Below, piece after piece: positions 2,809-61,752 of a stretch of DNA of 64,000 nt; position 1 is the first letter of the stretch; each line of letters opens with the position of its first letter. The translations under genes and the position numbers were made by a program. Source of the DNA: Octopus vulgaris (taxonomy: Eukaryota). The DNA lies in NCBI GenBank assembly GCA_951406725.2, contig OX597827.1, forward strand, positions 53,072,001 to 53,136,000, written 5' to 3'. The notes beneath the pieces are model-generated. The model saw only the letters and a list, made by a program, of their open reading frames with translations. It did no database searches and was not told where the DNA came from.

Positions 2809-3668
2809 GGAAGTATTTTATCTAGAGGTCAATAGTCTGAAAATTATGATCTTGTTTTGTTTAAAACTTTAATTTTCTTTGCAACCAGGAAAATATTACA
2901 TGAAATATACGTGAAAACCAGTGATCTTTATCATCTGATATCAGACCAAGAAAGAGTACTTGTAAATCATTAATTACGTCGACTTCTTAAATTTATACAA
3001 GAATTGGGGGCGGCTCTTCGAATGGAGAGATAAACGCAAATTCGAACGAATGAGAATTGTTATTTTTTAAAGAAATAGATAGAAATTCAGTTTTTCAACA
3101 AAAAGTTTTTGTTTCCATCTACGTTATAAACAAAAACTTATTGATTGTTCAAAGACTTAATTATGTTTGTTTGTTTTTTAAGACTAGATAAAAACATTAA
3201 ATTAAAATATTCAATATAACTGATTTGTGCAAATATATCAAACACATAGCATATATACACATACGGAAATGTAACAACCACCCAAACCATTTCAAATGAA
3301 AGCTTTACAGAAGGAAAACCTTGTGTGGCAATTGTGGCGTGTTCGAGAGCGTACGCATACGTAAGCACCTAGGTGCATAATTTTAAAAGTTTTGCCAACA
3401 AAACCTAAATTGTATGGACATCTTATTTTATCTCGAATGAATGAAGAAAAATTATTGGTGGAATATTTAGATTTGTAATTAATTCATTACGAATAAATAG
3501 AATAAGTCAAAACAAATAAAATTTCTGATAACACAAATTGCATATCGTAACAATAGAATCAACATACACATTTCAAAAAAAAAAAAAAAATGAAAAAGTT
3601 GGCGGGATGTTTTAAGTTTTGTTAGCAGAACGCAAACATTGCATTGCCTTACAAATGTTTCTAAATAC

Positions 3669-3750
3669 CTATTTCATCTCCATGTCCCATAGCAGCTAAT
3701 GCGTGAAGCAAAGCGGGACTGATAATCGAGGGAATTCCTTTCAACGGCAT
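3669..3750 (-). CDS. FUOM: Fucose mutarotase, coding exon 1 (MPLKGIPSIISPALLHALAAMGHGDEI)
   Basis: ATG at 3750-3748, GT donor at 3668-3667. Signature LKGIP..ISP.LL..LA.MGHGDEI of FucU/RbsD; 27 codons + 1 nt joins exon 2 in frame. Confidence 0.96.
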
Positions 3751-3883
3751 TTTCTTGGACGCGAAATAGACAAGTAATTGAGTTGTTGTTGTCAGAGCTT
3801 TCCACTATAGTTGTTTCCCTTGAAGTGGGTGTGTTTCTGCAGCAAAGCAGAGACTTGTATTCTATTTAATACGGCAATACACA

Positions 3884-3900
3884 CCAAAGTAAATACGCTC
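3884..3900. repeat. 17-bp target-site duplication CCAAAGTAAATACGCTC, copy 1 of 3
   Basis: Exact copies at 3884-3900, 5612-5628 and 7339-7355 bound the two element copies. Confidence 0.95.
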
Positions 3901-5611
3901 TATTTCTTTATTACCCACTAGGGGCCACGAAGAGGGAACATTACAAAACATGGGGGACATAAAACAATGCGATTAAAATTATGATTAAATGAATGTTAAA
4001 ATGAAAAAATGATAACATGAAAGCGATGCTAACGGCCCCCTCCGCCAGCATCACTTACCTTTCCGTTTCCTATCGCGATTCCAAAGTTTTTCACCTCACC
4101 TTTCATTTCTCTCTCATATCTCTCTATCATATCATCCTTCAAATATACTGATATACAATTTATTCTTAGTTCATAGCACTTGTTCATCAAAGAGCCCATG
4201 AGTTCAAAATCGAATACCGCATAGCTTCCGTCCTCATACTCCTGCCATACATCGTCTTCAAAAAGCCTTCTTGCGTTCTCAGTATCTCCCTTCCCCACAA
4301 CACATAAAAAGTAGGACTGGGGCTTTTGTATGTTCTGTGTGTCTGTTTTCGTTTTTCTTGTAGGCGGGGAGTGGGTGGGATTGCTGTTTGCGGGAGCAGG
4401 ATGGGTCTCCAAGGGTGTGGGTGGTATTGGGGTGGGTTGGGGCTTCGCACAGTTTTTCCTTTTCTTTCCTTTTCTCTTCTTTCTGCCCTCCTCACACTCT
4501 TTTTGCATCTCCTCCTCCTCTGTCATTTCCCTTTCCGTCTGCTTCTCTTTAATTTCTTCTTCTTTTGGGGCCTCCTCTTTTGGAGTTTCCTCAACGATTT
4601 CCTTTTCTCTTGGTGGGGGAGGGCAGAAGGCTCTTATGTGGCCCCTCAGGCCACACTTGTAACAACGTGGAGCTCTGCCCTCCACCCACACTCTCATAAT
4701 CACGTCTCCCAATTTAATGCTCTCCGCCAGGTCCACCAGTACCTCGTTCTCCGCCTGCACGTTTAGCTCTACTATTACGCCTCTCCAGCCCTCGGTTTTG
4801 ACCGAGGCATGGAGAATATCTACTTTCTCCTCGTGGCCGCTGATCACAGCCGCCACAATCCACTCAGCCTCCACGTTTGGTGGCACTCCCTCCACCCTTA
4901 CTCGTGTGATCCTTCTATTCAAGTACATAGGTAAAAGTGTTACCCTTTCTGACTTCACCGCCTTCACCGCCATCCTCCTCGCTGCAGTCTCACTTTTAAA
5001 ATGCACCACTACAGTACCGTACTTCGATCCTCGAGTCAGAAAAATGATTTCCTCCTCCGATCTTCTCAGGGCCTCCTCTATCCATTCCATGTTTACGATC
5101 TCTATTTTCTTTCTTTCGTTCACGAACACCCTGTAAATTATGGTCCTCTTATTGTACCATTCCTTTCTCTTTGGTGGTGGTTCCAGTTCCACCTCGCCGC
5201 TGTCCTTCCTCATATACCTCTGGAAACCTGGCAATTTTTCTAGGTTTATTTCTTTTTCCTGTTCCGTCTTCTTTTTTGCAACTCCTGCGTACGTTTTCCT
5301 GTTTTTTGTCTCCACATTATTTACATCACCGATTTGCTCGTCTTCAGAGTTCGATGTCTCCGACAAGCTTTCAAATATCCATTCTTCCTCCGACTCCTCC
5401 ACTAGGGAGTGGTCATCCATCTCCTCCCGCCTGACAGGCCAAAACGGCCGTCAAACAGAAAAAGTGTAACGCGCAGAACCAGTGGAACGCGAAACCGCTC
5501 CAACGCCGTTCAAAATTTCCACAACAACAACAACAATTCTTTTTGATCTTTTTTTACCGAATTTTACGAGCGTAAAAAAACACGACCGAACTCGAACAGA
5601 CAACTGCTCAC
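3901..5611 (-). mobile_element. ORF1-only non-autonomous non-LTR retroelement (Tx1/L1-like), copy 1, 1711 bp
   Basis: Flanked by the 17-bp TSD. 191-nt 5' UTR, single ORF, 128-nt 3' UTR ending GCCCCTAGTGGGTAATAAAGAAATA. No RT or endonuclease, no LTRs or TIRs. Confidence 0.85.
4029..5420 (-). CDS. 463-aa LINE ORF1/gag-like protein: acidic N-terminus, RRM-like region, CCHC zinc knuckle, charged/Pro-rich linker, unknown C-terminal domain
   Basis: Intact ORF. CYKCGLRGHIRAFC is CX2CX4HX4C; the RRITRVRVEGVPP motif upstream of the knuckle is typical of Tx1/L1-clade ORF1. Confidence 0.88.
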   Translation of the reverse strand: MDDHSLVEESEEEWIFESLSETSNSEDEQIGDVNNVETKNRKTYAGVAKKKTEQEKEINLEKLPGFQRYMRKDSGEVELEPPPKRKEWYNKRTIIYRVFVNERKKIEIVNMEWIEEALRRSEEEIIFLTRGSKYGTVVVHFKSETAARRMAVKAVKSERVTLLPMYLNRRITRVRVEGVPPNVEAEWIVAAVISGHEEKVDILHASVKTEGWRGVIVELNVQAENEVLVDLAESIKLGDVIMRVWVEGRAPRCYKCGLRGHIRAFCPPPPREKEIVEETPKEEAPKEEEIKEKQTEREMTEEEEMQKECEEGRKKRKGKKRKNCAKPQPTPIPPTPLETHPAPANSNPTHSPPTRKTKTDTQNIQKPQSYFLCVVGKGDTENARRLFEDDVWQEYEDGSYAVFDFELMGSLMNKCYELRINCISVYLKDDMIERYEREMKGEVKNFGIAIGNGKVSDAGGGGR

Positions 5612-5628
5612 CCAAAGTAAATACGCTC
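5612..5628. repeat. 17-bp TSD, copy 2 of 3 (between the two elements)
   Basis: Exact match to 3884-3900. Confidence 0.95.
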
Positions 5629-7338
5629 TATTTCTTTATTACCCACTAGGGGCCACGAAGAGGGAACATTACAAAACATGGGGGACATAAAACAATGCGA
5701 TTAAAATTATGATTAAATGAATGTTAAAATGAAAAAATGATAACATGAAAGCGATGCTAACGGCCCCCTCCGCCAGCATCACTTACCTTTCCGTTTCCTA
5801 TCGCGATTCCAAAGTTTTTCACCTCACCTTTCATTTCTCTCTCATATCTCTCTATCATATCATCCTTCAAATATACTGATATACAATTTATTCTTAGTTC
5901 ATAGCACTTGTTCATCAAAGAGCCCATGAGTTCAAAATCGAATACCGCATAGCTTCCGTCCTCATACTCCTGCCATACATCGTCTTCAAAAAGCCTTCTT
6001 GCGTTCTCAGTATCTCCTTCCCCACAACACATAAAAAGTAGGACTGGGGCTTTTGTATGTTCTGTGTGTCTGTTTTCGTTTTTCTTGTAGGCGGGGAGTG
6101 GGTGGGATTGCTGTTTGCGGGAGCAGGATGGGTCTCCAAGGGTGTGGGTGGTATTGGGGTGGGTTGGGGCTTCGCACAGTTTTTCCTTTTCTTTCCTTTT
6201 CTCTTCTTTCTGCCCTCCTCACACTCTTTTTGCATCTCCTCCTCCTCTGTCATTTCCCTTTCCGTCTGCTTCTCTTTAATTTCTTCTTCTTTTGGGGCCT
6301 CCTCTTTTGGAGTTTCCTCAACGATTTCCTTTTCTCTTGGTGGGGGAGGGCAGAAGGCTCTTATGTGGCCCCTCAGGCCACACTTGTAACAACGTGGAGC
6401 TCTGCCCTCCACCCACACTCTCATAATCACGTCTCCCAATTTAATGCTCTCCGCCAGGTCCACCAGTACCTCGTTCTCCGCCTGCACGTTTAGCTCTACT
6501 ATTACGCCTCTCCAGCCCTCGGTTTTGACCGAGGCATGGAGAATATCTACTTTCTCCTCGTGGCCGCTGATCACAGCCGCCACAATCCACTCAGCCTCCA
6601 CGTTTGGTGGCACTCCCTCCACCCTTACTCGTGTGATCCTTCTATTCAAGTACATAGGTAAAAGTGTTACCCTTTCTGACTTCACCGCCTTCACCGCCAT
6701 CCTCCTCGCTGCAGTCTCACTTTTAAAATGCACCACTACAGTACCGTACTTCGATCCTCGAGTCAGAAAAATGATTTCCTCCTCCGATCTTCTCAGGGCC
6801 TCCTCTATCCATTCCATGTTTACGATCTCTATTTTCTTTCTTTCGTTCACGAACACCCTGTAAATTATGGTCCTCTTATTGTACCATTCCTTTCTCTTTG
6901 GTGGTGGTTCCAGTTCCACCTCGCCGCTGTCCTTCCTCATATACCTCTGGAAACCTGGCAATTTTTCTAGGTTTATTTCTTTTTCCTGTTCCGTCTTCTT
7001 TTTTGCAACTCCTGCGTACGTTTTCCTGTTTTTTGTCTCCACATTATTTACATCACCGATTTGCTCGTCTTCAGAGTTCGATGTCTCCGACAAGCTTTCA
7101 AATATCCATTCTTCCTCCGACTCCTCCACTAGGGAGTGGTCATCCATCTCCTCCCGCCTGACAGGCCAAAACGGCCGTCAAACAGAAAAAGTGTAACGCG
7201 CAGAACCAGTGGAACGCGAAACCGCTCCAACGCCGTTCAAAATTTCCACAACAACAACAACAATTCTTTTTGATCTTTTTTTACCGAATTTTACGAGCGT
7301 AAAAAAACACGACCGAACTCGAACAGACAACTGCTCAC
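5629..7338 (-). mobile_element. ORF1-only retroelement, copy 2, 1710 bp
   Basis: Appears identical to copy 1 except one missing C (CCC at 4288-4290 vs CC at 6016-6017). Confidence 0.85.
5757..7147 (-). pseudogene. ORF1 of copy 2, frameshifted near 6016 (real or homopolymer sequencing error)
   Basis: ORF track splits it into 5915-7147 and 5757-6032; restoring one C gives the 463-aa protein. Confidence 0.75.
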
Positions 7339-7355
7339 CCAAAGTAAATACGCTC
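7339..7355. repeat. 17-bp TSD, copy 3 of 3
   Basis: Exact match; unique sequence resumes at 7356. Confidence 0.95.
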
Positions 7356-7479
7356 GCGTGCACACACGTGTACAGTAAGCACTAATACACATATATTTGC
7401 ATACACACTCACACAGCCAATAACATGCAAGCAGCTGATATATACAGCTGACACACACACACTTAAATATTTGCGCATG
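7356..7479. promoter_or_regulatory. Probable displaced FUOM proximal promoter fragment (E-box, octamer, CCAAT, NRF1-like half site)
   Basis: CACGTG 7365-7370, ATTTGCAT 7395-7402, CCAAT 7417-7421, TGCGCATG 7472-7479. Would lie ~150-275 bp from the FUOM ATG if the 3455-bp insert is removed. Confidence 0.4.
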
Positions 7480-7492
7480 TTGGTGCCCACAT

Positions 7493-8601
7493 TTTGCGAG
7501 GTAACGAGCAAGGTGGCTGCAGTAGCCAAGACCTGGTCTTGGCGGTGGCTATCCTTGAAAGGGAGGGCGGAGGTGGCCAATGTGTTTATCGCATCGGTTA
7601 TCACCTACCGCCTTTCCGTCGTTCCCTGCCCTGATTCGTGGTTGATCAAGTTGGAAAGACAGCTCTTCTACTTCTTGTGGAAGGGCGGGAAACCACTTGT
7701 GAAACGCTCTACTTGCTGTCAACAACCGTTAAAGGGTGGGCTAGGGATGCCTTGGCTGATGATGCGCAGACATGCGCTGAGGTTAAGACATCTGTGGCTC
7801 TACCTGGATGGTGAACGGGTGTGGTCTTCGCTAGCAAAACTGATGTTTCCCAAGTTCACCAGTTTCGGTGGATGGGAAACCTGGCTGAATCGTAGATCGA
7901 AACTTGGTACTTGGTACACGGAGTGTCGCAAGGCTCTCCTGCTATTCCGTCGCTCGGGCAACGCCTGCGGTGGGGGTTCCACCACATTCTTCTATAGAGG
8001 GTTGGTAGAGGCGGAATGTGAAGATACCTTGGGGGAAACCCTAGGTCTCGACGATAATCAGCTGGCCAGTCTGTTCCGACGTACGTTCGAGCCAAGGACA
8101 CTGGACAACTTCCAGAAGTCTCTGGCATGGCAATGCTACAGAGGAGCTCTACCTGTTCGGGATAAACTCGCAAGGCACGGTGGCCAAGACAGTCCGATAT
8201 GTCCAAGATGCGGGCGGGATAGGGAAACCGTCCCGCACGCGATTGTTCATTGTCCGGACGTGTCTGAGGTGTGGGTTTATGCCGAACACCTGTTGTCAGG
8301 TACACGAAGAGTACAGCTGTCGACTGAGTCGATTACAAAAATTGACCCACCGGATTTCCTCGTGAATGAAGGTAAGTTTCGTTTTCTCGTTGTAGTAGCA
8401 ATCGCGAAAGAGGTGATATGGAAGACGAGAATGAAAGGTGTACAGTCAGGCAAGTTCATCTCCGGCCCTGGTTTGATGAAGTATTTCATCTTTCACCTGA
8501 AAAGGAAGATAGGGCTGGAGAGAATATGCCTGACTAGGAGAGTGTATGAAGAACGATGGAAGGATGTAGCACGAAAGTTGCGAGCGAAAGATACAACATA
8601 A
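7493..8601 (+). CDS. C-terminal part of Tx1-type ORF2 (post-RT region and zf-RVT CCHC); no native start
   Basis: Uninterrupted frame with W..RWLSLKGR, FLWKG, GGLGMP, LPVRDKL and CPRCGRDRETVPHAIVHC. Confidence 0.85.
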
Positions 8602-8845
8602 ATGTGATACCAAGCTTAACCAAAAGTATCAGTGGGGAGGCGGGGCTCGTGGGGTCCGAGCTAAACCCGCACCCACTCCACCCGTAACGTCTTCCGGTCT
8701 GTCCCATCATCCGATTTCTGTCCATTTATTGTAATTCATGAAAATTTTTAAATCCGATTTTGTGTAAAAACCATTCGTATGTCTGACCCCAAATCAGATT
8801 GTTTTGTCCCCTCTGTGTTCGCCCCTTGTGGGTAATAATAAAACA
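7493..8845 (+). mobile_element. 5'-truncated Tx1-clade (L1 group) LINE with 16-bp TSD
   Basis: ATGTTGGTGCCCACAT at 7477-7492 and 8846-8861. Contains the ORF2 C-terminus and a 3' UTR ending GCCCCTTGTGGGTAATAATAAAAC. Confidence 0.9.
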
Positions 8846-9317
8846 ATGTTGGTGCCCACATATGGCCGTGTTTCTGTTAGTCCCTCCAAAGGCCAGCCAG
8901 ATACGAAGGCACTACCAGCTTCCTGCCCAAACACGACCTGCCTTGATCAATAGCAGCCTTGTTTCCAGTAGCCATTCAGTTAACGAAACCTGAATGAACT
9001 AGGTTTCTGTAAAGAGGCCTGCAAAACTTTAAGCCACATAGAGCCAAATCAAACCGTTTTAAATAATAATTAATGTAACTCCTACTAAATGTGTTGAGTG
9101 CCTTTTTCTTTTGTTTGCCCCCACCAAGCATATGCACAGAGTGTTTGAAGTGGTGTACAGATATTGTATATTAAGAAGAAGGAGGCAGTCAGAATTTTTG
9201 ATAATTCTTTATTAGTGTTTTTGTTTATTTAACTGAACTCTTCAAGATAATAAAACCAGGATCATTGTCAGTGCTAATAAAGAATTATCCAAAATTCTGA
9301 CTGCCTCCTTTTTTTAA

Positions 9318-9354
<37 letters not shown>

Positions 9355-9795: not shown

Positions 9796-10688
9796 TGGTT
9801 TGATGCAGGGACAGAGGGAAATCCACTTCTTTGTCCCATTTCTTCTAGAGTTTTTGCAAATGCTGTATGTATCTCCCTTTGAAGTCATTGGCCATCAAGT
9901 CTGTATAGTGCCTTTTGATACTATTGGATGGTGTGAGGTTGGTGTTATTAGAAGTAAGTTCAGTGTTTTAGCAACACCAGATGCATTAGAAAAGAGAATT
10001 CTTTGGACTGCATGGTTAGACAGGAAGCTAACAGAACTTTGGTGTCTGGGTGGCTTTTGGAGGGATTAACAGAAACATGGCAATAAGATGTGGGATGAAG
10101 TGATGAGGACTGATCTTATGATGTTGGGGCTCATGGAGAGATGACAAGGGACCAAGATGTTTGGCAATATGAGGTTCTAGAGAAGACCCACCCATGTCAG
10201 CAAGACAGAGTGCTAGAAGCATTGTGTCCCACCCACATGTAACAACAAAATTTTCACACACCCTACCCCAAGAAACTAAACTACATCTCCTTTTCTAAAC
10301 TGAATCTTTCTTTTCCTCACATTTCCTCTTCATAAACTATGATTGTCTTTCAGTCCCCTTTCCTGCTCCCACTGCCCTGCTGACTGTATTGCTGCTTTCC
10401 ACCCCACCCCATTTTTGTACCCAGGTTTTTGCCAGTCACTGCAATCCCCACTCCCTCCTTGCACTTTTTTGGCTATACCTGACTGCATATATTATGACCT
10501 TCGTACCTCTCTCTTCCTTACTCTACCATCACATCTATGCTCTGATCACGCTAGTGAACAGAGCATATTTACCGTGCATGTATGGGTGTGTGCACATATA
10601 GTTGATTGAAAGCAATGAATATATTTACACTACTTTGTTGAAAAGCTCAAAAACTTTATTGGCACAAAGTTATATATATATATATTTA

Positions 10689-32949: not shown

Positions 32950-34830
32950 TTACATCACCATTCCTGTATGTGCCTTTATCCCAGCTGTTGGGACATTCGG
33001 TGTATAAAGGAGTTTGATTCTGCTACCTTCGTCTGTATCTGGTCCTGAATTTAGATGGGGTGGATGGTACAATACAATGGTGGACAGGTCTCTCAATTGT
33101 ATGATACTCAATGCCAAAGTTAGATACTAGTCCATATAGGATTTTCTATATGTATGTTATTGCATATCTCTCACGCCTTCGTTCCAGGGAGTAAAGCTGT
33201 AGTTTTCTCAGCCTATCCCTATAGCTCATCTACCGCACTGTTTCAATCTTTTTAGTGTAGTGGCGTTGGACTGCTTCAAGCTCCACTGTTAGTTTGGCAC
33301 CATGTGGTGACCATAACTGGGAGCAGTAGTCCAGGCGGCTGAGAACAAAGGTTCTCCACAGGGTCAACATAGTTTCTTGGTCGCTTGTCTTGAAGGACCT
33401 CAATATCCATCCTGCCATTTGTCTGCACTTTACTACCATCTTGCTACTGTGCATATAAAATGATGCGTCATTGCACATACTGATCCCTGACTCTTTCACT
33501 GCCTGTGACTGGGATTGTAGTGCTTTCGTGTCCTGTAAAAGTAGGTTGTACTGTATTCGTGAGTTGATAGTGCAGTGCTTGAAATTTTCCAGCATTAAAC
33601 TGCATGTTGTTTACTTCAGCCCACTTGTATATTGAATTTAGGTACCACTTTAAGCTTCTGACATCATCTTGGTTTTTTTATTTCCTGTGATAATTTTGTA
33701 TCATTGTCATAGTTAGAGAAAGTGGCTGTCCGAGTGACCGTGGGCATGCCTAAGAGGGCTATTATGAACAGTAATGACCCCAGAACAGTTCCCTGGTTGA
33801 CACCACTTAGGATTTGAGTTTCCTCGGAAAGGGCACCATTGGTTGCTACTACCTGACTTCTGTTTTTAAGGAAGTCATGTAGCCACTCTCTCAGTTTCCC
33901 AGCAATGCCAAGGTCTTGTAGCTTATGATTTATCATGCCATGATCTACCTTATCAAATGCCTTTGTGAAGTCAAGGTATATTACACTGACATCTTAATGG
34001 TTAAAAAGCTGCTTCAAAACCCAGTCATAGTGCTGTAGGAGCTGTGTGAGGCAGCTTCTTCCTGGATGGAAGCCATGCTGTGTATTGTTCAGGAGGTAAT
34101 TTTCTGCTCGGAACTTTATCAGCTTCTTTCTGATGATTTGCTCCATGACTCTACTGATATGTGAAGTCAGAGAGATTGGCCTGTAGTCTTTGGCCTCGGC
34201 TCTGCTTCCATCTTTGTGGATAGGGCATATAATACCTTCTTTCAGCTTTTTAGGAAGTATACTACTTGCAAAGAAACTTTGGAAAAGTATCTGAAGTGGT
34301 TTCGCTAGAGCCTGCTTACATGACTTTAGGAGAATAGCTGGGAAGTCATCAGGATCAGTGGCAGGGCATGAGTTCAGTTCATCCTTGGTAGCTGCTACGT
34401 CTGTTTCTTCAATGTTGATGTAATTGATGGCTGGCGCCTCCTTTTTTAGAGCTGCAATATCGAAGAATTTAGCCAGATTTTTTATCTGCATGTGTCCAAA
34501 GGGGGAAGTGAAGACACTTTTAAATTGTTCATTGAAATCTCACTTATCCTTCCTGGATCCGTCATCAGTGAGTCATTCCCTTGGAACAACGGTCCTATTT
34601 TGTATTGTATTGTGGCTGTTTCCTTTGCGAATTTATAGAAAGCTTTGGGATTTGTTTTTATGCTTTCCACAGCCTTTTTCTCTCTCTCTGCTCTTTCTCT
34701 TTCACGAGAGAGTTTGATCTTGCTTTCTAGGAGTGTCCGTGTTAAGATAGACTTTTCTCTATCCTTCAGTTGCCTATTCAGCCACTTTGAGATCTTTGAC
34801 CTGCTTTTTCTTCTTTCTAAAGAATATTTA
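32950..34830 (-). mobile_element. Degenerate CR1-like LINE ORF2 (same family as 42795-45490)
   Basis: [40 protein letters not shown]; many stops and frameshifts. Confidence 0.88.
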
Positions 34831-35264
34831 GAAAGCAGAAACAAGCCGTATACAGAAGAGAAAAACCATCCAATTTCAACACAAAAAACAATAAAATTTT
34901 AGTAACAATCTTCCACCAGGGTTTCGAAACCGCAGTTCCAAATCACTACACAAACACAAGATGCTGATGTCACCTACCTCCAGTCCAGTGAAATTCCACA
35001 AACACCAGTTGCTGACGTCACATAATTCCAAACAAATCAAAACCGAACTTCAGCGAATACAACGAAAAGACCCTTTAAGAGAACCAACCAACCAGAACGA
35101 CCTATAACTGTATCCGCAAGGAAATCAACCAAGCAGAACGACAAGCTTGACCATGGAAGAAAAACGTCATCAATCTTTTAACGAATCAAAATCAGATCCA
35201 TTCGCAGAAAAAAATTTATAAATATATCTTTCCCTAAACATACCATTACAAGCGAAAGCGAAAG

Positions 35265-38735: not shown

Positions 38736-40712
38736 AAACAAGTCAAAAATAGAAAATGCTAAGATGATTTTATAGTGAATCTTTCAGTACCGGTTTCGGT
38801 CATTTTGAGACCTTTTCAACTGTAACGATTAAATAATTAAATTTAGAAAAATTTAGAAAAATTAGAAGAAAGGTTTTTTTAAAGGAATACTTCCATAGTA
38901 GTGTTCAGATATAGGTGGCATTCTGCCTTTCTCTGACTCCCTTGTTTGCACTTGTGTATTCGAGGTCGTTGTGAGTTCTTGAGTGGGTGGGAGTGGGAAA
39001 ATCTGGGCTGGTCAGTGGCGACCGGCAGTCGCTGCGTAGACGTTATACTTAAAGACATTAGTGACAAGGTTAAGGGGTAGAAGGTGGAGAAGTAGAAGAA
39101 GAAGAAGAAGATGACGGTGCCGATGATGATGACGATGAAGAAGAAGAAGGAGAAGGAGAAGATGACGATGATGATGGTGGTGATGACGATGACGACGATG
39201 ATGATGATAAATGATGATGAAGAAGAAGAAGAGGAAGAAGAAGAAAAAAACAGAGAAGGGAGAATATGAATGGGTGAAGATATAGCTGTGATGGGGCGAT
39301 TAGTAATGGATTCTATGGAATGTAATATTTGTGTGTGTATATATATTTCTTTTATTCTTAAGTTGAGGTATATTAATTGTTTGTCGTAGACCCGTTAAGA
39401 AGTGGCCTGTATTTTATAATAAAGAGATTTTCTTTACTTATTCGTTGTCTCGAGGTTGTATCGTCCCTAAATTGGTAGAGGGGAAAATTCTGAAGTTTGG
39501 TGTTTTTTTGTTGGCGCAAGTATCTATGTGTTGGCTAAAAGCTATTTTTCTGTTTTGGGGAATTTTTATCTGGGATCTGTGCAGGGCCATTCGTTTACGC
39601 AAACCATTTTTTGTTTGGCCTATGTACTGCTCTTGACACCCGGAGCAGGTTAGTGAGTATATTAGGTTCTCCGAAGCACATGTGAAGTTGCTTTTCACTG
39701 TAAACCGTTGTCCCTGTTTGAAGGAGAACTCAGAACCCTCGATTAGATAGTCGCATATCCCGCAATTGGGTCTTCCACATTTTTTTACTGTCGGCTTCTG
39801 TGTTGAAGAGTGAATTCGGGCTTGTGTTAGGAGACTTTTCATGGATCTAGGCTGTCTTTTGCTTTTTATGATCGTGTGTGTTTGGAGGATTGTGTTCATT
39901 CTGTGGTCTTTTTTTAGGAGGGGTATGTTGTGGAGGATGGTGCCGAAGGCTTCGTTATTGAGAGGGTTGTGTGTGGAGATGTATGGTAAAGCTTTTGGTT
40001 GTAAGTTATTCTTTGATTTGGGATGTCTCAGTTCCTTGATGTTAAGTTGAAGGGCACGTTGAATGCACTTGTCAATAAGTGAAGGTGGATAGTTCCTGGT
40101 GATAAGGGTATCTTTTAGTTCTTGTAGTCGTGTGTCTCTGGTGTTTGCGTTAGAGACTATAGTGCATATCCTTTTTGCTAGATTGAAGGGGATATTCATC
40201 CTGGTGTGTCTGGGGTGGCATGAATTGAATGGAAGATATTGCTTAGAGTCTGTAGGCTTATAGTATATGTCTGTTTCTATTATATTATTAGCTTTCTTAA
40301 TGAGGATATCGAGGAAGGGAAGTTGTTGCTGGCTATATTCCATCGTGAATTGGATGTTTACGTCCAGCCCGTTTAAAATTTCCTGGAATTCTATGAGTTT
40401 TTCTATATTTTTATGCCAAAGAATGAAACAGTCATCTAGATATCTCTTCCAGTTGTTTTCTATGTAGATGGAGAAAGGGCTGCTATATCTTTCTAGAACC
40501 TTACGATACAGACTGATCTCTAGGTATCCTATGACTAAGTTGGCAAAGGAGGGGGCCATTCGTGTACCCATCGCAGTCCCCGATTTTTGTCGGTAGAAGT
40601 TGTCATTGAAGGCGAAGAAGTTATTTTCCAGGATGAATTTAACCCCTTCTATCACGAATTCTTTTTTGATGCGGTGTGGTAGTTCGTTGGCGTGATTCTC
40701 TAGCCAGAATTG
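38730..40712 (-). mobile_element. 5'-truncated Penelope-like retroelement (RT + GIY-YIG endonuclease, 3' UTR with GAA/GAT repeats)
   Basis: GTAMGTRMAPSFANL, WKRYLDD, PFLD, SCHP, C..C..C, LIYSLTC..C..QYIGQT. Frame open from 40712 to ~39480. Confidence 0.93.
38785..38822 (-). ncRNA. Minimal type I hammerhead ribozyme motif, U3-A8 variant
   Basis: CAG-TTGAAAA-GGTC-tcaaaat-GACC-GAAA-CCGG-TA-CTG, on the Penelope sense strand downstream of the ORF. Confidence 0.7.
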
Positions 40713-40744
40713 GATATATATATATATATGTATATATGTATATA

Positions 40745-41470
40745 CATTTTTCTGTTGTAGTTTCAGGTCATAGCAGCAGCCACGCTGATTCACCGCTGTT
40801 TTCTGTTTTGCAACACTGTTATTGCTGAGAGCCTCCTCCATTATATGGCACATGATAAAGAATGGAGTTTGATGTAGCTACCCTCATTTTCACCTCCTGC
40901 CGTGAAGTAGGTTAATATAGTACTCTCGACAGGAAGATGTACAGCTTTGATTTACAAACGTCTACATCTACTTTGTTCAGGTTCCTAAGGCTCTTTGGGA
41001 GAATATTAAAAACCGGTGAGCCACTGAAACCTAGGCTGTTGCAGTAGCTGGTCCTGAGGAGCGATGGCATTGCGAGGATCTTTGGCACTATGCAGTGTCG
41101 TCCCGTTCTGGCATTGGTGTAGCTTTCAATGTCAAAATTTGGCACAGTTCCTTCCAGGATCTACCAGGTATATACTACTGCATACCTCTCTCATCTCTCT
41201 CCAGGGAGAAGAGTCGTAACTGTTTCAGCCCTTCCCAGTAGCTGAGTAGTTGCAAAGAGGCAATCTTCTTTGTGAATCTTCTCTGGAATACTTCAAGGTC
41301 TGCTGTTAATTTAACACTGGTGGGTGACCACAACGGTAAGGAGTAATCCAGGCAGCTGAGGACGAATGTCTTCCAGAGGACCATCAGAGTTTCCTTATCT
41401 CTGGTTCTGAAAGTTCTCAGGATCCATCCAGCCAATCGTCTGCAATTTGTAGCCATCCTGGTAATGTGCA
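40745..41470 (-). mobile_element. CR1-like LINE 3' fragment
   Basis: [28 protein letters not shown]. Confidence 0.85.
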
Positions 41471-42489: not shown

Positions 42490-42725
42490 CATGTATATAT
42501 ATGTTTATATATATACGTATATGTAAATACGTTTAAATATTTATAAATGCATTTATGTATGTATATATGTATATATATAAATATATATACATATTTCTTT
42601 ACATATATGTATATATATATACTTATATATACATATATCAATATATATGCATATATATACATATATTTATATACATATATCTACATATATACACATATAT
42701 CTACATATATATACATATATCTACA

Positions 42726-42774
<49 letters not shown>

Positions 42775-42794
42775 ACATATCTATGCATATATTA

Positions 42795-45490
42795 CAACAA
42801 GCCATGTAGGCAAGTTTGAAGACTGCCTTATAAAAATAGAAGAAGTTCTAATCACATTAGAACAACACATAAGTGTACTTCTTATGGGAGACTTCAATCT
42901 ACCCAATGTCAGATGGCCCGAGGGCCTTTCTCTCCCAGGAATGACAAGATGTGAACGAGGACAGGCGAGATCCCTCCTGAACCTCATCAACACCCTGTAC
43001 ATGGAGCAAGCAATACTCCAACCAACCAGGGCAGGTAATACATTGGATCTCTGCTTCACAAATAATATGGATCTCATCCATAATGTGAAAGTGACACCGA
43101 CACTACTCTCGGATCACAACATGGTAGAGCTGACCATGTACGGGCCAAAGGAAAGCATGGACATGCAGCCTACAAGAAACCCTCAGAATCTTTCCAGCTT
43201 GAACTTCCATAAGGCAAACTGGAGACAAATTGAGAAAGAGATCCTCAAACAAAACTGGCCTGAATGTCTCTCCTCGCCAGACATCGACGTGAAACTTCAA
43301 CAATTCATGTCTGTAATGCAAGCCATATGCTACAAATGTGTCCCAGAGAGAAAGGCCACTGTACACAAGAACAAAATCTCCAGAGAGAGGAAAATTTTAA
43401 TGAGACGGCGTACAAAAATTTCAAATCGCCTAAACAAACAAATTGAAAGCAGTGAAAAGTCCCGCCTGAAAATAAAACTGTTGGAAATTGAAAAATGTCC
43501 CCAACTCTTCCATGAAAAGGAAAGAGTAGACAAAGAAGCCTGGGCTATAGACAACATAAAATCTAACCCCAGAGCTTTCTACAGGTATGCCAAAGAAACA
43601 GCTACGGTGCACTGTAGGATAGGGCCACTCCTTGAAAAGGATGGCACACTCACAGGAAAACCAATGAGGGTAAGTGAAATACTGAATGAGCAATTCAAGA
43701 GTGTTTTCACTCCACCCCTTGGGCATTTCCAAATCACCAATGCAACTAACTTCTTTACCACTGCAGATATAAAATCAGAGGCGGCGACGATAGATTACAT
43801 CGATATAAAGGAAGACGATGTAATAAAGGCTATAGATGAAATGAAAACAGACTCAGCTACTGGCCCCGATGGATTCCCGGCAATCCTCCTAAAAGTATGT
43901 AAGAGAGTCCGAGCAAGACCACTGCAGTTCCTCTTTCAGAGCTTCCTTGCAACTGGCAAACTTCCAAGAAAACTGAAGGAAGGTAAAATATGCCCTATTC
44001 ATAAAGGAGGTAGCAGAGCGGAGGCCAAGAACTACAGACCTATCTCTCTGACCTCACACATCAGCAAGGTCATGGAACGAATAGTCAGAAGGAAACTGAT
44101 CACCTTCCTTGAAGAAAATGACTTGCTGCCTGACACCCAACATGGTTTCCGACCAGGAAGAAGCTGCTTAACTCAGCTCCTACAACACTATGACTGGGTG
44201 CTGAAACGGCTGCTTAACCACTCAAATGTGGAAGTGATATATCTCGACTTTGCAAAGGCCTTTGATAAAGTCGATCATGGAATGATATGTCACAAACTGC
44301 GTGATCTTAGCATAGTTGGAAAACTGGGAGAATGGCTTCATGACTTTCTGAAGAATAGAAGTCAGGTGGTAGTAGCCAATCGTTACTTCCATTAACACGC
44401 AAATAGTGAGCGGTGTTCCGCAGAGCACTGTTTTGGGACCACTACTGTTCATAATGGCCCTCTCAGACATGCCCTCAGCCACGCAGAGAGCCACGATCAC
44501 AAGTTATGCAGATGATACAAAAGTTTCACAGGCAATACAGAACCCTGAGGACACTAAACATAATATACAATAATATACATAATAAACAAAATATACAAGT
44601 GGGCTGAAAAGAATAGCATGCAGTTCAATGCTGAAAAGTTTCAAGCTTTATGCTATTAGCATGCAAAACTAAATGCAATACCCAATGAATACACTGGACC
44701 GGGAGGAATTGCAATCCCAGAGGCACAATCAGTGCGTGACCTGGGTATTTACATGAGTGATGACGCAACCTTTCGTGTACATGTTGCTAAATTGGCAATG
44801 AAATGTAGACGACTGGCCGGATGGATTCTTAGAACCTTTAGAACAAGAGAACAAGAAACCATGATGGTCCTCTGGAGAACACTTGTCCTAAGCCACTTTG
44901 ATTATTGCTCTCAGCTATGGTCACCATCCAGTGTCAAGTTGATCACAGAACTTGAGGCGATCCAACGTAGCTACACGAAGATAGCCTCTGTGCAGAATAT
45001 AAGCTATTGGGAAAGACTCAAGAGATTAAAACTCTATTCCTTGGAGCGTAGGCGAGAAAGATATGCCATAATATACATCTGGAAGATCCTGGAAGGACTT
45101 GTCCCAAACTTTGGCATCGAGAGTTACCCAAATGCCAGAACTGGGCGAACCAAAGACTCCAAAATTTGCCATCTAGATGTAGGACAAGATACTGTGATAG
45201 CCTGGGCTTCCGAGGCCCACAGCTCTTCAATATCCTCCCGAAGAACCTAAGAGACATGCATGGGGTGGATGCAGATGTCTTTAAAATGAAACTGGATCTC
45301 TTCTTCTCAGGTATCCCAGATGAACCAACTTCACGGCAAGAGGTGCAGATGAGGGCAGCTGCATCGAACTCTCTCATGCACCAAATGGCAGTTGCTAAAA
45401 AGCATTCGTGAAGTAAAACCATGTAGCAACACCAAATGGCGGTGCCCCAGCATGGCCACAGCTCGTGAGCTGAAACTAGAATCAATCAAA
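42795..45490 (+). mobile_element. 5'-truncated CR1-like LINE (APE C-terminus + RT), disrupted
   Basis: [45 protein letters not shown]; deletions and frameshifts after 44380. Confidence 0.92.
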
Positions 45491-55482: not shown

Positions 55483-58400
55483 TAGATAAACTTAGATAAA
55501 CTTAGATATGTTTCGACCAAAGATTGGTCCAGGCCATGTCTAACTTAATAGCACCACCTGATAAGATTATTCAAATCCTGTTTAAGTCAAGTTTTGTTTG
55601 AGTCAAGTTTTGTTCAAGTAGTGAGTTCTTGTTGGGTGAGTTGTATCCAATTATGGGTGGCTTATCTGGTATTCTTTGAAGGAATCTATCCAGACTCTGT
55701 TTAAAGTTGATGGGATCCTTTTCCTCTTTGATCTCCCTCGGGACAATGTTAAATAGGGCAAGGCCTGTTGAGGAAAAGAAATTATGTTGCAGTGTGCATG
55801 TATGTTGTGATCTTGAATTGGGCAGGGGACGTATAGCCCGTGGTCCAAGTCTTGGATGAACCTTGAAGCTAATGTTTAGGTCGTTTGGGCAAAGTTGGCG
55901 GTATATTTTCCACATCGTACAAATGATGTACCGCTCACGGCGACGTTGGAGGGAGTAAAGTTTCAAGGCTTTAAGGCGATCCCAATAATCGAGAGCAGCC
56001 ATGTCTTCAATTTGTTTCGTGAGTGCCCTCTGGGGTGACTCAATTCTGGAGATGTTTTGTCTTGTGTGAGGAGACCACAGTGGGCAGCAGTATTCAAGGT
56101 GTGGCCGTACAAAGGAGGAAAAAAGTGGTATGATGACACCTTGTTCTCTGGACCGGAAAGTTCTTAAGATCCAGGAACTCATCCTACGAGCTATATCGAC
56201 CTTCTTGTTGATGTGTGCACTCCAACTGAGATCGTCATCAACAATTACACCCAGGTCTCTGATATTGTTAGAGGCTGTGAGCGGTTCCCTTGAAGGAAGA
56301 GAGTATGGTTGTTTTAGTGAGGAATTTCTTCCAAAATGCATCAGCTCAAATTTTCCCTCATTCAGTTGCATTTTGTTTCTGTCTGCCCATTGACTCACAG
56401 CATATAGATCAGACTGGAGTTGAGTTCGGTCTGCTTCTTCATTGACGATTTGCTGGAGCTTAGTGTCATCAGCAAATATTTTCACTTTGCAGTAATGTAC
56501 GACACTGGAAAGGTCGTTTAAGTAAATTATGAAGAGTAGCGGACCCAAAACAGTTCCCTGGGGAACACCGCTGGTGACTTTTGCTGGGTTTGAGTGGACT
56601 CCATCAACTACAACATGTTGTGTTCTATTCGCCAGGAAATACTTTATCCAGTGTAGAACTTTTCCACGGATTCCAACATTTGCCAATTTTGAGAGTAGGA
56701 TGTTATGGTCTACCCTGTCGAACGCTTTACTGAAGTCAAGATATATGACGTCAGAGTTCGAACCTGTTCCCAAGGCTTTGAGTACATCTTCAATGTGGCG
56801 TAAGAGCTGTGTTAGACAGTCCCTGCCACAGCGAAAGCCATGCTGATTTGCATTTAGGAGTTTGTGGGTCTCCAGGAAGTCAGCTATCCTTGATCTTAAC
56901 ACTCTTTCAGACACTTTAATGATGTAGGAGGTGAGTGAGATTGGGCGATAGTTGACTGCGAGGGATCTGTTTCCCTGTTTGAAAACCGGGATGACCGACT
57001 GGGATAGAAACTGTTTCGGTATATAACCTGCGTCTAACGAATTTCTCCAGAGGTTGGTCAGAGGGACTGCAAGTTGGTATCTACATTCCTTCAGGAGACT
57101 AGCGGGAAATCTATCAGGGCCTACAGCAGAGTAATGTTTGACCTCATTTATTGCTACTACAATGTCAGTGGCAGTGAAGGTCATGTCTGAGATTTTGTGT
57201 TGGGAGTCAACTTCGTTCGTTTCCCTTACGTCAATATCAGTGGGAACACTAAAGACAGAGCAGTATTGTTTCTGCAGTATTTCTGCCATTTCTTTAGCAT
57301 CGTGTTGGGGAATGCCGTTATCATCAATCAATGGCCCAATGGGCGAGACAGTGGTTCTATGCTTATTTGCATAAGAATAGAACACTTTTGGGTTCTGTTT
57401 GATGTTTTTGATTACCCATTGTTCCTCCACAGCTCTTTGATTTTCAATGGAGGTTTTCATGTTGTTCTGCAGATGAAGTTTTTCCAGCTCTAGTCTTTTC
57501 ATTGTTGTTGAATGTGGATGTTGTGTGTGGGAATATTTTAATTGGTTGATTTTTTTGTTGAGTCTTTTGATGCGCCTGATGAGGGTTTTTTTCTTTTTAG
57601 GGAGCCGGTTTCTGTTTGTGTTAGTAGATTTCTTGGGAGCGTGTTTAGAGCATTTATAGGTGACAATGTTTTCAAAGTGCTGCCACGCAGTCTCAATATG
57701 AGAGGAATTGAGAGTAAAAGACTAGTCGATGGAAGACAGATCCTTTCTGATTGTTCCCCAGTCCGCTTTGTGGAAGTTTATGTTGTCAAATGGGTGCCAT
57801 GGAGTGGGATTGGCTGGTTTGGTTTTTATATGCGGGAATTAAGATTGCAGAGTACCATGTCGTGGTCTGAGAGGAGAGTTTTTTCGACTGAAATACTGTG
57901 AACGTAGCTAGAGTGATTGGTCAATACCAGATCCAAGATCGTTTTATTCTGTCTCGTTGGTTCAAGCACTAGCTGAGTCAGGAAATACTCATCCATCAGA
58001 TTAAAGAGCAGTTCTGCTGCTGCTCTATCTGATGTAGAGCACTTGCCTAACTTCAGAGTATTTGTGGGCCAGTTCACATGAGGGAGGTTAAAATCACCCA
58101 TCACTAGTAAGTTTCCGGAGTGGTACTTCCGAAGGAAGGACTTGACTTTGCTAAGGCACTCTTCAAAGTACTTTAGAGGTGCTTGGGGAGGCCTGTAAAG
58201 ACCAACAATGGTTATGTCCTTGGCTTTGTTGTATAGTGATACCGATTCACAGTAGCCATTGGAAAATATGTCCTTGGCATCAAGTGAAAAGGAGTCATGG
58301 ATAAAGATGGCTGTCCCTCCCTTATTTCGGTCTGTGCGATCCGCACGAACAATGGTGAAATCTTTTATTTTCACCTCTGCATCCATATGGGTGTTGTTCA

Positions 58401-58944
58401 GGTGAGTCTTGGTAAGGATAAAGAAAGGGAAGCAATGTGCCATTTCGGCAAGCCAACTCTCTATATATGGGATCTTTCATTTTTGGGCAATAATTGATGG
58501 GTTGATGCCACGTACATTTAACAGGAATGTCGAGGTAAGGGAAGTTGGTAATGGGTGAGTGGTCCTTGTGATTTGCATAGATGGTTGGTGATAGCTCGCT
58601 GGATCTCCTGGCTTAGGTCGGCCTTCATATTTTCTAGGTATGTCAGTAAAAAAGAGTTACTTGTTTGGTTTGCCACTTGGTCAGGGGATACATATTTCAT
58701 GTTGGCGTTGTTTGGTGTTTTTTCATGGTTCTGTCTACGTTGTTTGATTGTGGGAGGGGAAACGTGGTTGTATTTTGTTCTTGTTGTTGTCCTAGATTTC
58801 CTCTGTTCCTGTTTATATTTAGTCTGTGATCGTTTTGTGCCCTTCAGATGGTGGTGGTTGCATTCTGGGTTCAGGCACATCCTTTGTGAGACAAAAGTTT
58901 GGCACAGTTTAGGATGGAATAAGGTGCATACATTGTCTTTTATG

Positions 58945-58945
<1 letters not shown>
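55481..58945 (-). mobile_element. Near full-length CR1-like LINE (ORF1 C-terminal Cys/His region, APE, RT, tandem 10-nt tail)
   Basis: 58880-58518 Cys/His motif; 58443-57826 APE (LYRPP, MGDFNLP, SDH); 57502-55571 RT (FADD). (CTTAGATAAA)n tail at 55481-55508. Confidence 0.92.
55571..57502 (-). CDS. Reverse transcriptase portion of CR1-like ORF2 (643 aa open)
   Basis: [40 protein letters not shown]. Confidence 0.85.
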   Translation of the reverse strand: MKRLELEKLHLQNNMKTSIENQRAVEEQWVIKNIKQNPKVFYSYANKHRTTVSPIGPLIDDNGIPQHDAKEMAEILQKQYCSVFSVPTDIDVRETNEVDSQHKISDMTFTATDIVVAINEVKHYSAVGPDRFPASLLKECRYQLAVPLTNLWRNSLDAGYIPKQFLSQSVIPVFKQGNRSLAVNYRPISLTSYIIKVSERVLRSRIADFLETHKLLNANQHGFRCGRDCLTQLLRHIEDVLKALGTGSNSDVIYLDFSKAFDRVDHNILLSKLANVGIRGKVLHWIKYFLANRTQHVVVDGVHSNPAKVTSGVPQGTVLGPLLFIIYLNDLSSVVHYCKVKIFADDTKLQQIVNEEADRTQLQSDLYAVSQWADRNKMQLNEGKFELMHFGRNSSLKQPYSLPSREPLTASNNIRDLGVIVDDDLSWSAHINKKVDIARRMSSWILRTFRSREQGVIIPLFSSFVRPHLEYCCPLWSPHTRQNISRIESPQRALTKQIEDMAALDYWDRLKALKLYSLQRRRERYIICTMWKIYRQLCPNDLNISFKVHPRLGPRAIRPLPNSRSQHTCTLQHNFFSSTGLALFNIVPREIKEEKDPINFKQSLDRFLQRIPDKPPIIGYNSPNKNSLLEQNLTQTKLDLNRI

Positions 58946-59034
<89 letters not shown>

Positions 59035-61579: not shown

Positions 61580-61730
61580 ACAAGATCGACATTATTTACA
61601 TTCGACGGATATCTGTCCTCATCCTGTTTGTTGTTACAACAACGTTTCGATTGATATATCCTCCAGCCTTCTTCAGGTGTCTTGGAGAAATTTCGAAACT
61701 GGGTTATCATTCCTAAGATGTTTTTGGATA
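61580..61730 (-). mobile_element. Penelope-like terminal fragment with hammerhead-like motif (~61641-61680)
   Basis: Minus strand CTGAAGA-A-GGCTGG...TCAATC-GAAACGTT, stem II partly decayed. Confidence 0.5.
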
Positions 61731-61752
61731 TTATTATTATTATTATTATTAT

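Follow-up and report, generated by a model that had tools for sequence, protein, structure and literature searches.

Non-autonomous LINEs that retain only ORF1 have already been described in the L1, Jockey and CR1 clades, with HeT-A, HAL1 and Ag-Sponge (PMC5786205) and TRE5-A.2 (PMC5633606) as examples. Mammalian HAL1 is an L1-group, non-autonomous element coding for ORF1p only (PMC5753468; PMC5786205), descended from a mammalian L1 with a type II ORF1 (coiled coil, RRM, CTD) and relaxed, poly(A)-based recognition (PMC3747384; PMC5203782). Drosophila HeT-A (Jockey clade) carries only Gag/ORF1, obtains Pol from its partners TART/TAHRE and forms head-to-tail arrays (PMC5537684). Dictyostelium TRE5-A.2 has no ORF2 of its own and moves in trans by means of the ORF2p of TRE5-A.1 (PMC5633606). 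Anopheles Ag-Sponge is classed as an ORF1-present non-autonomous LINE (PMC5786205). No ORF1-only LINE from a Tx1-like lineage or from a cephalopod was found in the literature searched.

The Octopus vulgaris locus described here lies in a 64-kb window (the whole stretch of DNA that was analysed) and contains, on the minus strand, an element of 1,711 bp whose single ORF encodes 463 aa (Table 1). It fits the category of ORF1-present non-autonomous LINEs, encoding an ORF1-like protein, lacking ORF2, being flanked by target-site duplications (TSDs) and having a 3′ end in common with an autonomous lineage. The element departs from HAL1 in its ORF1, predicted to be of type I (RRM-RRM-CCHC), and in its tail, which lacks poly(A) and carries a specific terminal motif also present in the LINE; a strict HAL1, derived from mammalian L1, is ruled out by this architecture and the lack of Transposase_22. 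Whereas HeT-A is telomeric and combines poly(A) with a very long 3′ UTR, the octopus element is interstitial, bounded by TSDs and equipped with a short UTR. TRE5-A.2 is a variant of the very autonomous element that serves it, and its targets are tRNA genes; the present element shares only a short sequence with its neighbour, in a window without a tRNA gene. Ag-Sponge differs in being CR1-derived and belonging to the CR1 clade (PMC5786205).

Table 1. Coordinates of the element copies, the neighbouring LINE and associated features in the window.
Feature	Position	Strand	Remarks
17-bp TSD, left	3884..3900		abuts copy 1 3′ end; exact triple repeat
Element copy 1	3901..5611	-	1,711 bp, ORF intact
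3′ UTR, copy 1	3901..4028	-	128 nt, without poly(A); AATAAA ends 6 nt before terminus
18-mer, A variant, copy 1	3908..3925	-	predicted GCCC/GGGU stem, CUAGU loop; end 7 nt downstream
463-aa ORF, copy 1	4029..5420	-	
5′ UTR, copy 1	5421..5611	-	191 nt, CpG o/e 1.73; putative internal promoter
17-bp TSD, middle	5612..5628		between copies 1 and 2
Element copy 2	5629..7338	-	1,710 bp
18-mer, copy 2	5636..5653	-	
17-bp TSD, right	7339..7355		abuts copy 2 5′ end
Spacer, pre-existing	7356..7476		121 bp; separates the two first-strand nick sites
16-bp TSD of LINE, left	7477..7492		
LINE, 5′-truncated, L1/Tx1-group	7493..8845	+	1,353 bp
18-mer, T variant, LINE	8821..8838	+	loop CUUGU; end 7 nt downstream
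16-bp TSD of LINE, right	8846..8861		exact

Two element copies, the only ones in the window, lie head-to-tail at a single site with the 17-bp TSD between them and on both flanks. Copy 2 lacks one base of a C run around 6016 but otherwise equals copy 1, and its ORF is therefore out of frame after aa 377. This tandem pair with a TSD between its copies was absent from the original prediction. The element bears hallmarks of target-primed reverse transcription (TPRT), including exact TSDs and no terminal repeats, and tblastn searches of 3901–7338 with three ORF2 relatives as queries returned no ORF2 remnant. We thus consider it very likely to be an ORF1-only element mobilised by TPRT. Its identification as a SINE is ruled out by the 463-aa ORF and by the lack of any Rfam or tRNA match in the window. 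Crocodilian SINEU-3, which is non-autonomous and moved by Tx1-Mar, offers a parallel in having a TSD between tandem copies and shared hot spots with opposite orientations; however, SINEUs are short, snRNA-derived, non-coding and poly(A)-tailed, and have no 3′ similarity to a LINE (PMC4494074).

The 463-aa protein consists of an acidic N-terminus, two RRM-like domains (~aa 82–250), a CCHC knuckle (252–267), a disordered linker and a small alpha/beta C-terminal domain (~aa 367–439). An AF2 model built on a 71-sequence alignment has pLDDT >90 across most of aa 61–270 and resembles tandem RRM proteins, namely IMP3 RRM12 (Foldseek E 2.8e-5) and La (VIA Z 8.8 with an rmsd of 2.6 over 81 residues). 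The model predicts an ORF1-like nucleic-acid-binding protein with the RRM-RRM-CCHC layout of type I ORF1s (PMC4120745; PMC5203782). Such ORF1s are known in I, Jockey, R1, Tad1, plant L1, L2 and CR1 (PMC4120745) and are compatible with Tx1 (PMC5203782); because they occur in so many clades, the protein is not tied to Tx1 by its architecture. Its family is large and diverse, with 322 representatives at E<=0.001 (clusters at 50% identity). The 71 family members had no Pfam match to ZCCHC3 or plant-L1 ORF1 domains, and Transposase_22, the type II ORF1 domain, matched neither these nor the protein itself at E<=1. The nearest ESM Atlas neighbours were unnamed arthropod CCHC clusters (0.92) and a ZCCHC3-domain cluster (0.90); with the knuckle removed, PRE_C2HC and DUF4780 clusters ranked first, all below 0.9.

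The neighbouring LINE retains the final 368 ORF2 codons (open, with zf-RVT at E 9.9e-9), a stop at 8599–8601 and a 244-nt 3′ UTR. Longer relatives carry PF03372 and PF00078 in 4 of 9 cases, and a full-length relative, P0005, matched human L1 ORF2 at 1e-72 versus R2 at 6e-29. Judged by these similarities, the LINE is a member of the L1/Tx1 group with an APE-RT-zinc finger ORF2 nearest L1. The Tx1 label of the fragment, which lacks the RT core, is our assumption based on motif likeness and on the listing of the octopus L1-group class as L1-Tx1.

Both 3′ ends quoted in the original prediction are present in the sequence, end without poly(A) as claimed, and are flanked by TSDs of exactly the 17 and 16 bp reported. 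They share the 18-mer GCCCCTWGTGGGTAATAA at 17 of 18 positions, a claim upheld by shuffles and real windows alike. Allowing up to three mismatches, the 18-mer occurs in the 64 kb only at the three 3′ ends (0.07 expected; three matches in 0/100 shuffles), which amount to two independent ends since both minus-strand matches belong to copies of one element. When the terminal 40 nt of the two ends were compared, no 18-nt match exceeded this 17/18, against a shuffle maximum of 15 (n=1,000), and the core extends to 20/23. The local score between the two 3′ UTRs, 75, was reached by 0/5,000 shuffles and by 0/960 real 244-nt windows elsewhere in the window (maximum 54); regions following six other LINE-like or Penelope-like ORFs scored 15–32. 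A generic poly(A) signal accounts for 5 of the 18 bases. The statement that the remainder of the UTRs differ is roughly correct: similarity is marginal immediately 5′ of the motif (equalled by 208/5,000 shuffles) and further upstream (11/2,000 shuffles but 81/1,234 real windows as good), yet the last 63/70 nt still align alike in 48 of 70 columns (~69%). Two further features were missing from the earlier description: both element and LINE stop exactly 7 nt past the 18-mer, and each has a full AATAAA, 6 nt (element) or 3 nt (LINE) from the terminus.

Short 3′ stem-loops common to LINEs and their dependent elements, and bound by ORF2p, are known from the stringent tails of ZfL2-1/2, UnaL2 and one monocot L1 lineage (PMC4176376; PMC3747384). 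The predicted 4-bp GCCC/GGGU stem does appear in the minimum free energy structure of both octopus ends; however, the element end folds no better than chance (z -0.83; 43/200 shuffles equally good) and the LINE end modestly better (z -2.43; 5/200). The stringent tails were proven by mutagenesis or compensatory changes, whereas the stem here shows no covariation or compensatory change between the two independent ends. The single difference within the motif falls in the loop, which determines specificity in the L2 LINEs of zebrafish (PMC4176376). On balance, we lean slightly towards functional recognition of the motif by ORF2p. The original interpretation stands in part: an ORF1-only element shares an end-registered motif with an L1/Tx1-group LINE, but with two independent ends, no covariation and a z of -0.83 the 18-mer is a candidate RT signal.

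The occurrence of the same terminal signal in element and LINE suggests that the copying enzyme is borrowed from the LINE lineage. We posit that the element is a non-autonomous non-LTR retrotransposon keeping only ORF1, which is probably copied in trans by an L1/Tx1-group ORF2p using the terminal motif, and we place the donor ORF2 with somewhat greater assurance within the Tx1-like lineage. The neighbouring LINE's own family is an unlikely donor. As a recent parent the neighbour itself is rejected, its 3′ UTR being too different (~69% over 70 nt) even though the two insertions appear very recent; more likely, the enzyme now comes from a sister family whose 3′ UTR is closer. The element itself most likely originated long ago, when a Tx1-group element lost its ORF2. 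Transcription would start from a promoter in the CpG-rich 5′ UTR, and ORF1p may then coat the element RNA. The borrowed ORF2p could bind the last 25–70 nt, including the conserved core GCCCCTWGTGGGTAATAA, so that TPRT would begin 7 nt downstream of the core rather than at a poly(A) tail. The endonuclease would nick an unmethylated region after ...CGC with a stagger of 16–17 bp, and an intact upstream target hit twice, or duplicated via the TSD, could yield the TSD-copy-TSD-copy-TSD arrangement.

The alternative that survives best, though we consider it improbable, is shared ancestry without current function, in which the element arose from a different Tx1 family by internal deletion, the 18-mer is its slowest-changing remnant (a poly(A) signal and its GC-rich neighbour) and recognition is relaxed or relies on other features. 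The AATAAA within or beside the motif in both ends, the non-significant element hairpin and the weak upstream similarity (48/70 columns), as decayed homology predicts, are all compatible with this. Furthermore, the Tx1-mobilised SINEU-1 family has a 3′ sequence common to no known LINE (PMC4494074), which means that stringency is not obligatory for Tx1 enzymes. Against it, 17/18 identity beside ~60% identity points to local constraint. Cleavage usually occurs 10–30 nt from AATAAA; both ends stop nearer than this, in the same 7-nt register and without poly(A).

Less probable still is a chimera, in which template switching joined a short tail from Tx1 to the ORF1 of some unrelated LINE clade, or to an ORF1-like gene that had been domesticated, and the product now rides Tx1 as a SINE would. 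Similarity is essentially confined to the last 25–70 nt, and neither Pfam nor ESM Atlas assigns the ORF1 to Tx1. The compatibility of Tx1 with a type I ORF1 speaks against a chimera, as does the ZCCHC3-domain lead from ESM Atlas, a family that we take to be linked to Tx1 ORF1. This link was not found in PMC10351740. Both ORF1 exchange across clades and SINE tail exchange are documented (PMC4120745; PMC5786205).

The original prediction went further and proposed a bipartite system of ORF1-only RNA and an ORF2 donor; its strong reading is a Tx1 lineage split into ORF1-only and ORF2-only RNAs which complement each other via the common 3′ signal. No ORF2 piece is fused to the ORF1-family protein in any of 150 family hits, as expected anyway because the ORFs are separate. 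The depth of the family (322 clusters), the 121 bp between the insertions and the use of HeT-A Gag by TART in trans (PMC5537684) also agree with such a split. However, the LINE copy is 5′-truncated and uninformative on its ORF1. L1-Tx1 insertions recently active in O. vulgaris have a mean length of ~5.4 kb (2,288,644/421, our division; PMC13282606 Table 1) versus ~5.3 kb for 5′ UTR, ORF1, ORF2 and 3′ UTR summed here from parts, and are therefore long enough to hold their own ORF1. Since nothing points to ORF1 loss in the LINE, we regard the obligate two-part system as very unlikely. The same low standing applies to an extended version, in which the Tx1-like LINEs of octopods rely on a compact 3′ ruler independent of poly(A) (the 18-mer 7 nt from the end), and an old, independently evolving ORF1-only lineage that kept only that signal would supply ORF1p to ORF2-only partners, the interdependent halves both homing to unmethylated CGC sites. 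A chance match of two unrelated neighbours, short and chosen after the fact as the match is, can practically be dismissed given the scores of shuffles and real windows and its identical position relative to both 3′ ends.

Relaxed RNA recognition through poly(A) is classically illustrated by the L1 group, and PMC3747384 leaves open whether stringency is ancestral in this group. With its similarity to a Tx1-like LINE reduced to ~25 terminal bases, a young and intact element such as this is a minimal, naturally occurring candidate for the signal used in stringent recognition. It also represents a repeat class overlooked by RT-based annotation, the copies of which gene finders call CCHC genes. As the concept of ORF1-only LINEs is already known, the gain is incremental unless the donor turns out to be without ORF1.

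No Rfam or tRNA insertion target for the two nicks was found in the window; the TSDs are similar in length and the nicks 121 bp apart. CGC precedes the nick of both element and LINE, each on its own sense strand (n=2), and the chance of two random sites sharing a trimer is 0.019.

The ORF1-only element, present as a tandem pair on the minus strand, and the adjoining 5'-truncated LINE fragment end in a common 18-mer, as the original prediction held. The motif occurs three times in 64 kb, each time at the 3' end of an element copy or of the LINE, against an expectation of 0.07. Comparison of the two 3' UTRs gave a score of 75, which was equalled by none of 5,000 shuffles and none of 960 real windows, and the sequences following six other LINE-like or Penelope-like ORFs scored only 15–32. 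None of 161 stored proteins, tried in three frames, reads through the motif. The predicted TSDs of 17 and 16 bp and the lack of a poly(A) tail at either end were likewise found.

Coordinates of the element pair and the adjoining LINE
Feature	Position	Strand	Remark
17-bp TSD	3884-3900, 5612-5628, 7339-7355		exact triple repeat
Element copy 1	3901-5611	minus	
Element copy 2	5629-7338	minus	
Element ORF, copy 1, 463 codons	5420-4029	minus	
LINE, 5'-truncated	7493-8845	plus	between 16-bp TSDs

The pair is arranged as TSD-element-TSD-element-TSD across 3884-7355, and the copies match at 1,710 of 1,711 bases, the sole difference being one base absent from a C run near 6016 in copy 2, which causes a frameshift after residue 377. 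Copy 1 has a 5' UTR of 191 nt and a 3' UTR of 128 nt, and the LINE retains 368 open codons and a 3' UTR of 244 nt. Both insertions look young: their TSDs are perfect, their frames are open and CpG has been kept (observed/expected 0.82 and 0.87 in the two elements versus 0.34 for 9.3-34 kb). No further copies of element or LINE were found elsewhere in the 64-kb window, and no ORF2 remnant was found inside the element, which is not a SINE.

The distance from the 18-mer to the terminus is exactly 7 nt in element and LINE alike, and that from AATAAA is 6 nt in the element and 3 nt in the LINE, with junction calls that may move a base or two owing to target microhomology. This common register, together with the lack of poly(A), is consistent with a motif that sets where reverse transcription begins; common descent would yield an identical picture. 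Extensive homology upstream of the motif, initially read from shuffles, was weakened by an empirical null of real windows, the similarity there being marginal (matched by 208 of 5,000 shuffles and 81 of 1,234 real windows). The GCCC/GGGU stem of the original prediction was indeed predicted at both ends, but folding z-scores for the last 45 nt were -0.83 (element) and -2.43 (LINE), and there is no covariation because the only mismatch between the two 18-mers falls in the loop. Directly upstream of the motif, the element 3' UTR carries two similar TTGT..TGTYCCC units in tandem (3935-3975(-)), either of which can be aligned to the corresponding unit of the LINE.

The 463-aa protein encoded by the element had a weak CCHC knuckle (E 0.05) as its sole Pfam match. 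A HMMER search of 1.84 billion cluster representatives returned 322 relatives at E<=0.001 and 77 at 1e-10, the best being 51% identical; a word-index search with residues 85-275 gave no homologue among 677 candidates. An AlphaFold2 model, built from an alignment of 71 sequences (the query and 70 of 150 listed relatives), is confident across roughly aa 61-270 and moderately so over 370-439. Foldseek related this model to tandem-RRM proteins (E 2.8e-5), and VIA matched it to La (Z 8.8, rmsd 2.6, 81 residues). Among the 150 listed relatives, a single knuckle was present in all 45 having the canonical pattern, excluding P0013, an outlier with 26 knuckles. As modelled, the architecture is that of a type I ORF1, described in the relevant part of PMC4120745 as one or more RRMs followed by CCHC. 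Such an ORF1 is compatible with Tx1 according to a passage of PMC5203782, and is also recorded in I, Jockey, R1, Tad1, plant L1, L2 and CR1 (PMC4120745, same part). Atlas leads for the kinship of the ORF1 were mixed; fold searches returned no LINE ORF1 structures, a result compatible with kinship, and the viral structure library yielded nothing beyond generic RRM proteins.

Residues about 367-439 (4104-4322(-)) are predicted to form a small alpha/beta domain of ferredoxin-like resemblance after a disordered linker, with a match to YebC (Z 8.2, rmsd 2.3, 63 residues). A C-terminal domain that closes with L..FP.DVG is conserved in several relatives (in a leave-one-out test, E<0.002 for six of seven), and its strand-helix prediction is partly similar to that of the element; a profile from the seven relatives' domains did not detect the element's own. 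None of the 150 listed relatives carries an ORF2 piece, no fused long form was seen among proteins of 1,508-4,305 aa, a size range that makes this test uninformative, and neither the element protein nor the LINE protein had a relative in two scans of contigs from prokaryotic genomes. In three stored relatives (P0045, P0074, P0101), ORF1-family pieces are fused into predicted genes of unrelated kinds (LDL-receptor repeats, WD40); the fusions are probably gene-model artefacts from inserted copies.

The LINE contains zf-RVT and is 33–57% identical to nine longer relatives (52% for that of Argonauta hians, a match that points to an octopod genome). A full-length relative matched human L1 ORF2 at 1e-72 versus R2 at 6e-29, placing the LINE in the L1 group, and it is likely Tx1 in the strict sense. 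The anatomy behind the original prediction, that an ORF1-only RNA is mobilised by a Tx1 ORF2 through the motif, is present in the DNA, and the prediction is supported in part; we infer transcription of the element, ORF2p binding and the identity of the donor. Most likely, the element would be transcribed from its own 5' UTR, the ORF1p it encodes would serve its RNA, and the short terminal signal of that RNA would be presented to ORF2p from an autonomous Tx1-like family, the borrowed ORF2p then nicking the target and beginning cDNA 7 nt past the motif.

On sequence comparison, the neighbouring LINE and the element cannot be recent parent and derivative, since both are young yet share only ~69% identity over their last 70 nt. 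A sister Tx1 family is the likelier donor because octopus has many: the supplement of PMC13282606 gives 80 L1-Tx1 families in O. vulgaris. In zebrafish L2 LINEs the loop determines specificity, as stated in a section of PMC4176376, and the loop is where element and LINE differ. The figures quoted from PMC13282606 for recently active L1-Tx1 (13 families, 421 insertions, 2,288,644 bp covered) give a calculated mean of ~5.4 kb per insertion. This is close to the ~5.3 kb obtained by summing the element 5' UTR and ORF1, a 1,150-codon ORF2 and the LINE 3' UTR, which argues, indirectly, that the autonomous partners have an ORF1 of their own. A split LINE, in which an ORF1-only RNA and an ORF2-only partner each need the other, is thus very improbable in our estimation.

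The first-strand nicks of element and LINE lie 121 bp apart, and CGC precedes each on the sense strand of the inserted sequence concerned (n=2, noticed post hoc; probability of a trimer common to two random sites, 0.019). CpG observed/expected is 1.09 in the left flank of a window otherwise CpG-depleted (0.34), and the kept CpGs suggest that the target region (2900-3883 plus 7356-7476) is unmethylated and possibly regulatory. No RNA-gene target was found in the window by Rfam or ARAGORN, and no clear repeat target was recognised in the flanks besides an inverted match of 77% over 82 bp between the LINE right flank (8855-8933) and 10013-10094, an older repeat beside the target site. MITE-like inverted repeats of 49 bp (90%, 58 bp apart) occupy 9167-9322. 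Tandem copies with a TSD sandwiched between them are known in Tx1-mobilised SINEU-3, where a passage of PMC4494074 interprets them as sequential insertions. Sequential insertion is one of three options for the tandem element pair, and with one sequence at hand duplication via the TSD or an assembly error may also account for it.

Other retroelement ORFs lie at 55571-58946(-), 42581-45250(+), 33230-34898(-), 61655-63939(+) and 39438-40877(-), comprising RT-bearing LINE pieces (tblastn matches) and one Penelope-like ORF, and none contains the 18-mer. By likeness, we take these LINE pieces to be CR1-type and RTE/R4-type.

Like HeT-A (PMC5537684), HAL1 (PMC5753468) and Ag-Sponge (PMC5786205), as outlined in parts of those papers, the element is a non-autonomous LINE with an ORF1, and its working mode is comparable to that described for TRE5-A.2 in a portion of PMC5633606. 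Unlike HAL1 proper, it has a type I ORF1 and lacks poly(A). Within the L1 group, the relevant section of PMC3747384 reports stringent tails from a single lineage of monocots and from a green alga. Neither an ORF1-only Tx1 derivative nor the 18-mer appeared for cephalopods in the portions of full-text literature covered, including PMC8967140, PMC10294476, PMC11203168 and PMC10351740; subscription papers, the original HAL1 paper, Repbase, Dfam or the Zenodo library for O. vulgaris (PMC13282606) may already contain the element family.

A perfect splice-donor 9-mer, AAGGTAAGT, lies in sense orientation in element and LINE alike, at 4053-4061(-), 5781-5789(-) and 8369-8377(+), ~160 nt (element) and ~475 nt (LINE) before the 3' end. 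The 9-mer is a weak finding: shuffles contained one by chance in 147 of 3,000 and 100 of 3,000 cases (p about 0.03-0.05 per occurrence). A U1 site can suppress use of a terminal poly(A) signal, and one here could, tentatively, do so. The LINE's 9-mer sits in E-G-K codons, conserved in the protein of its two closest relatives, and may be a by-product of those codons.
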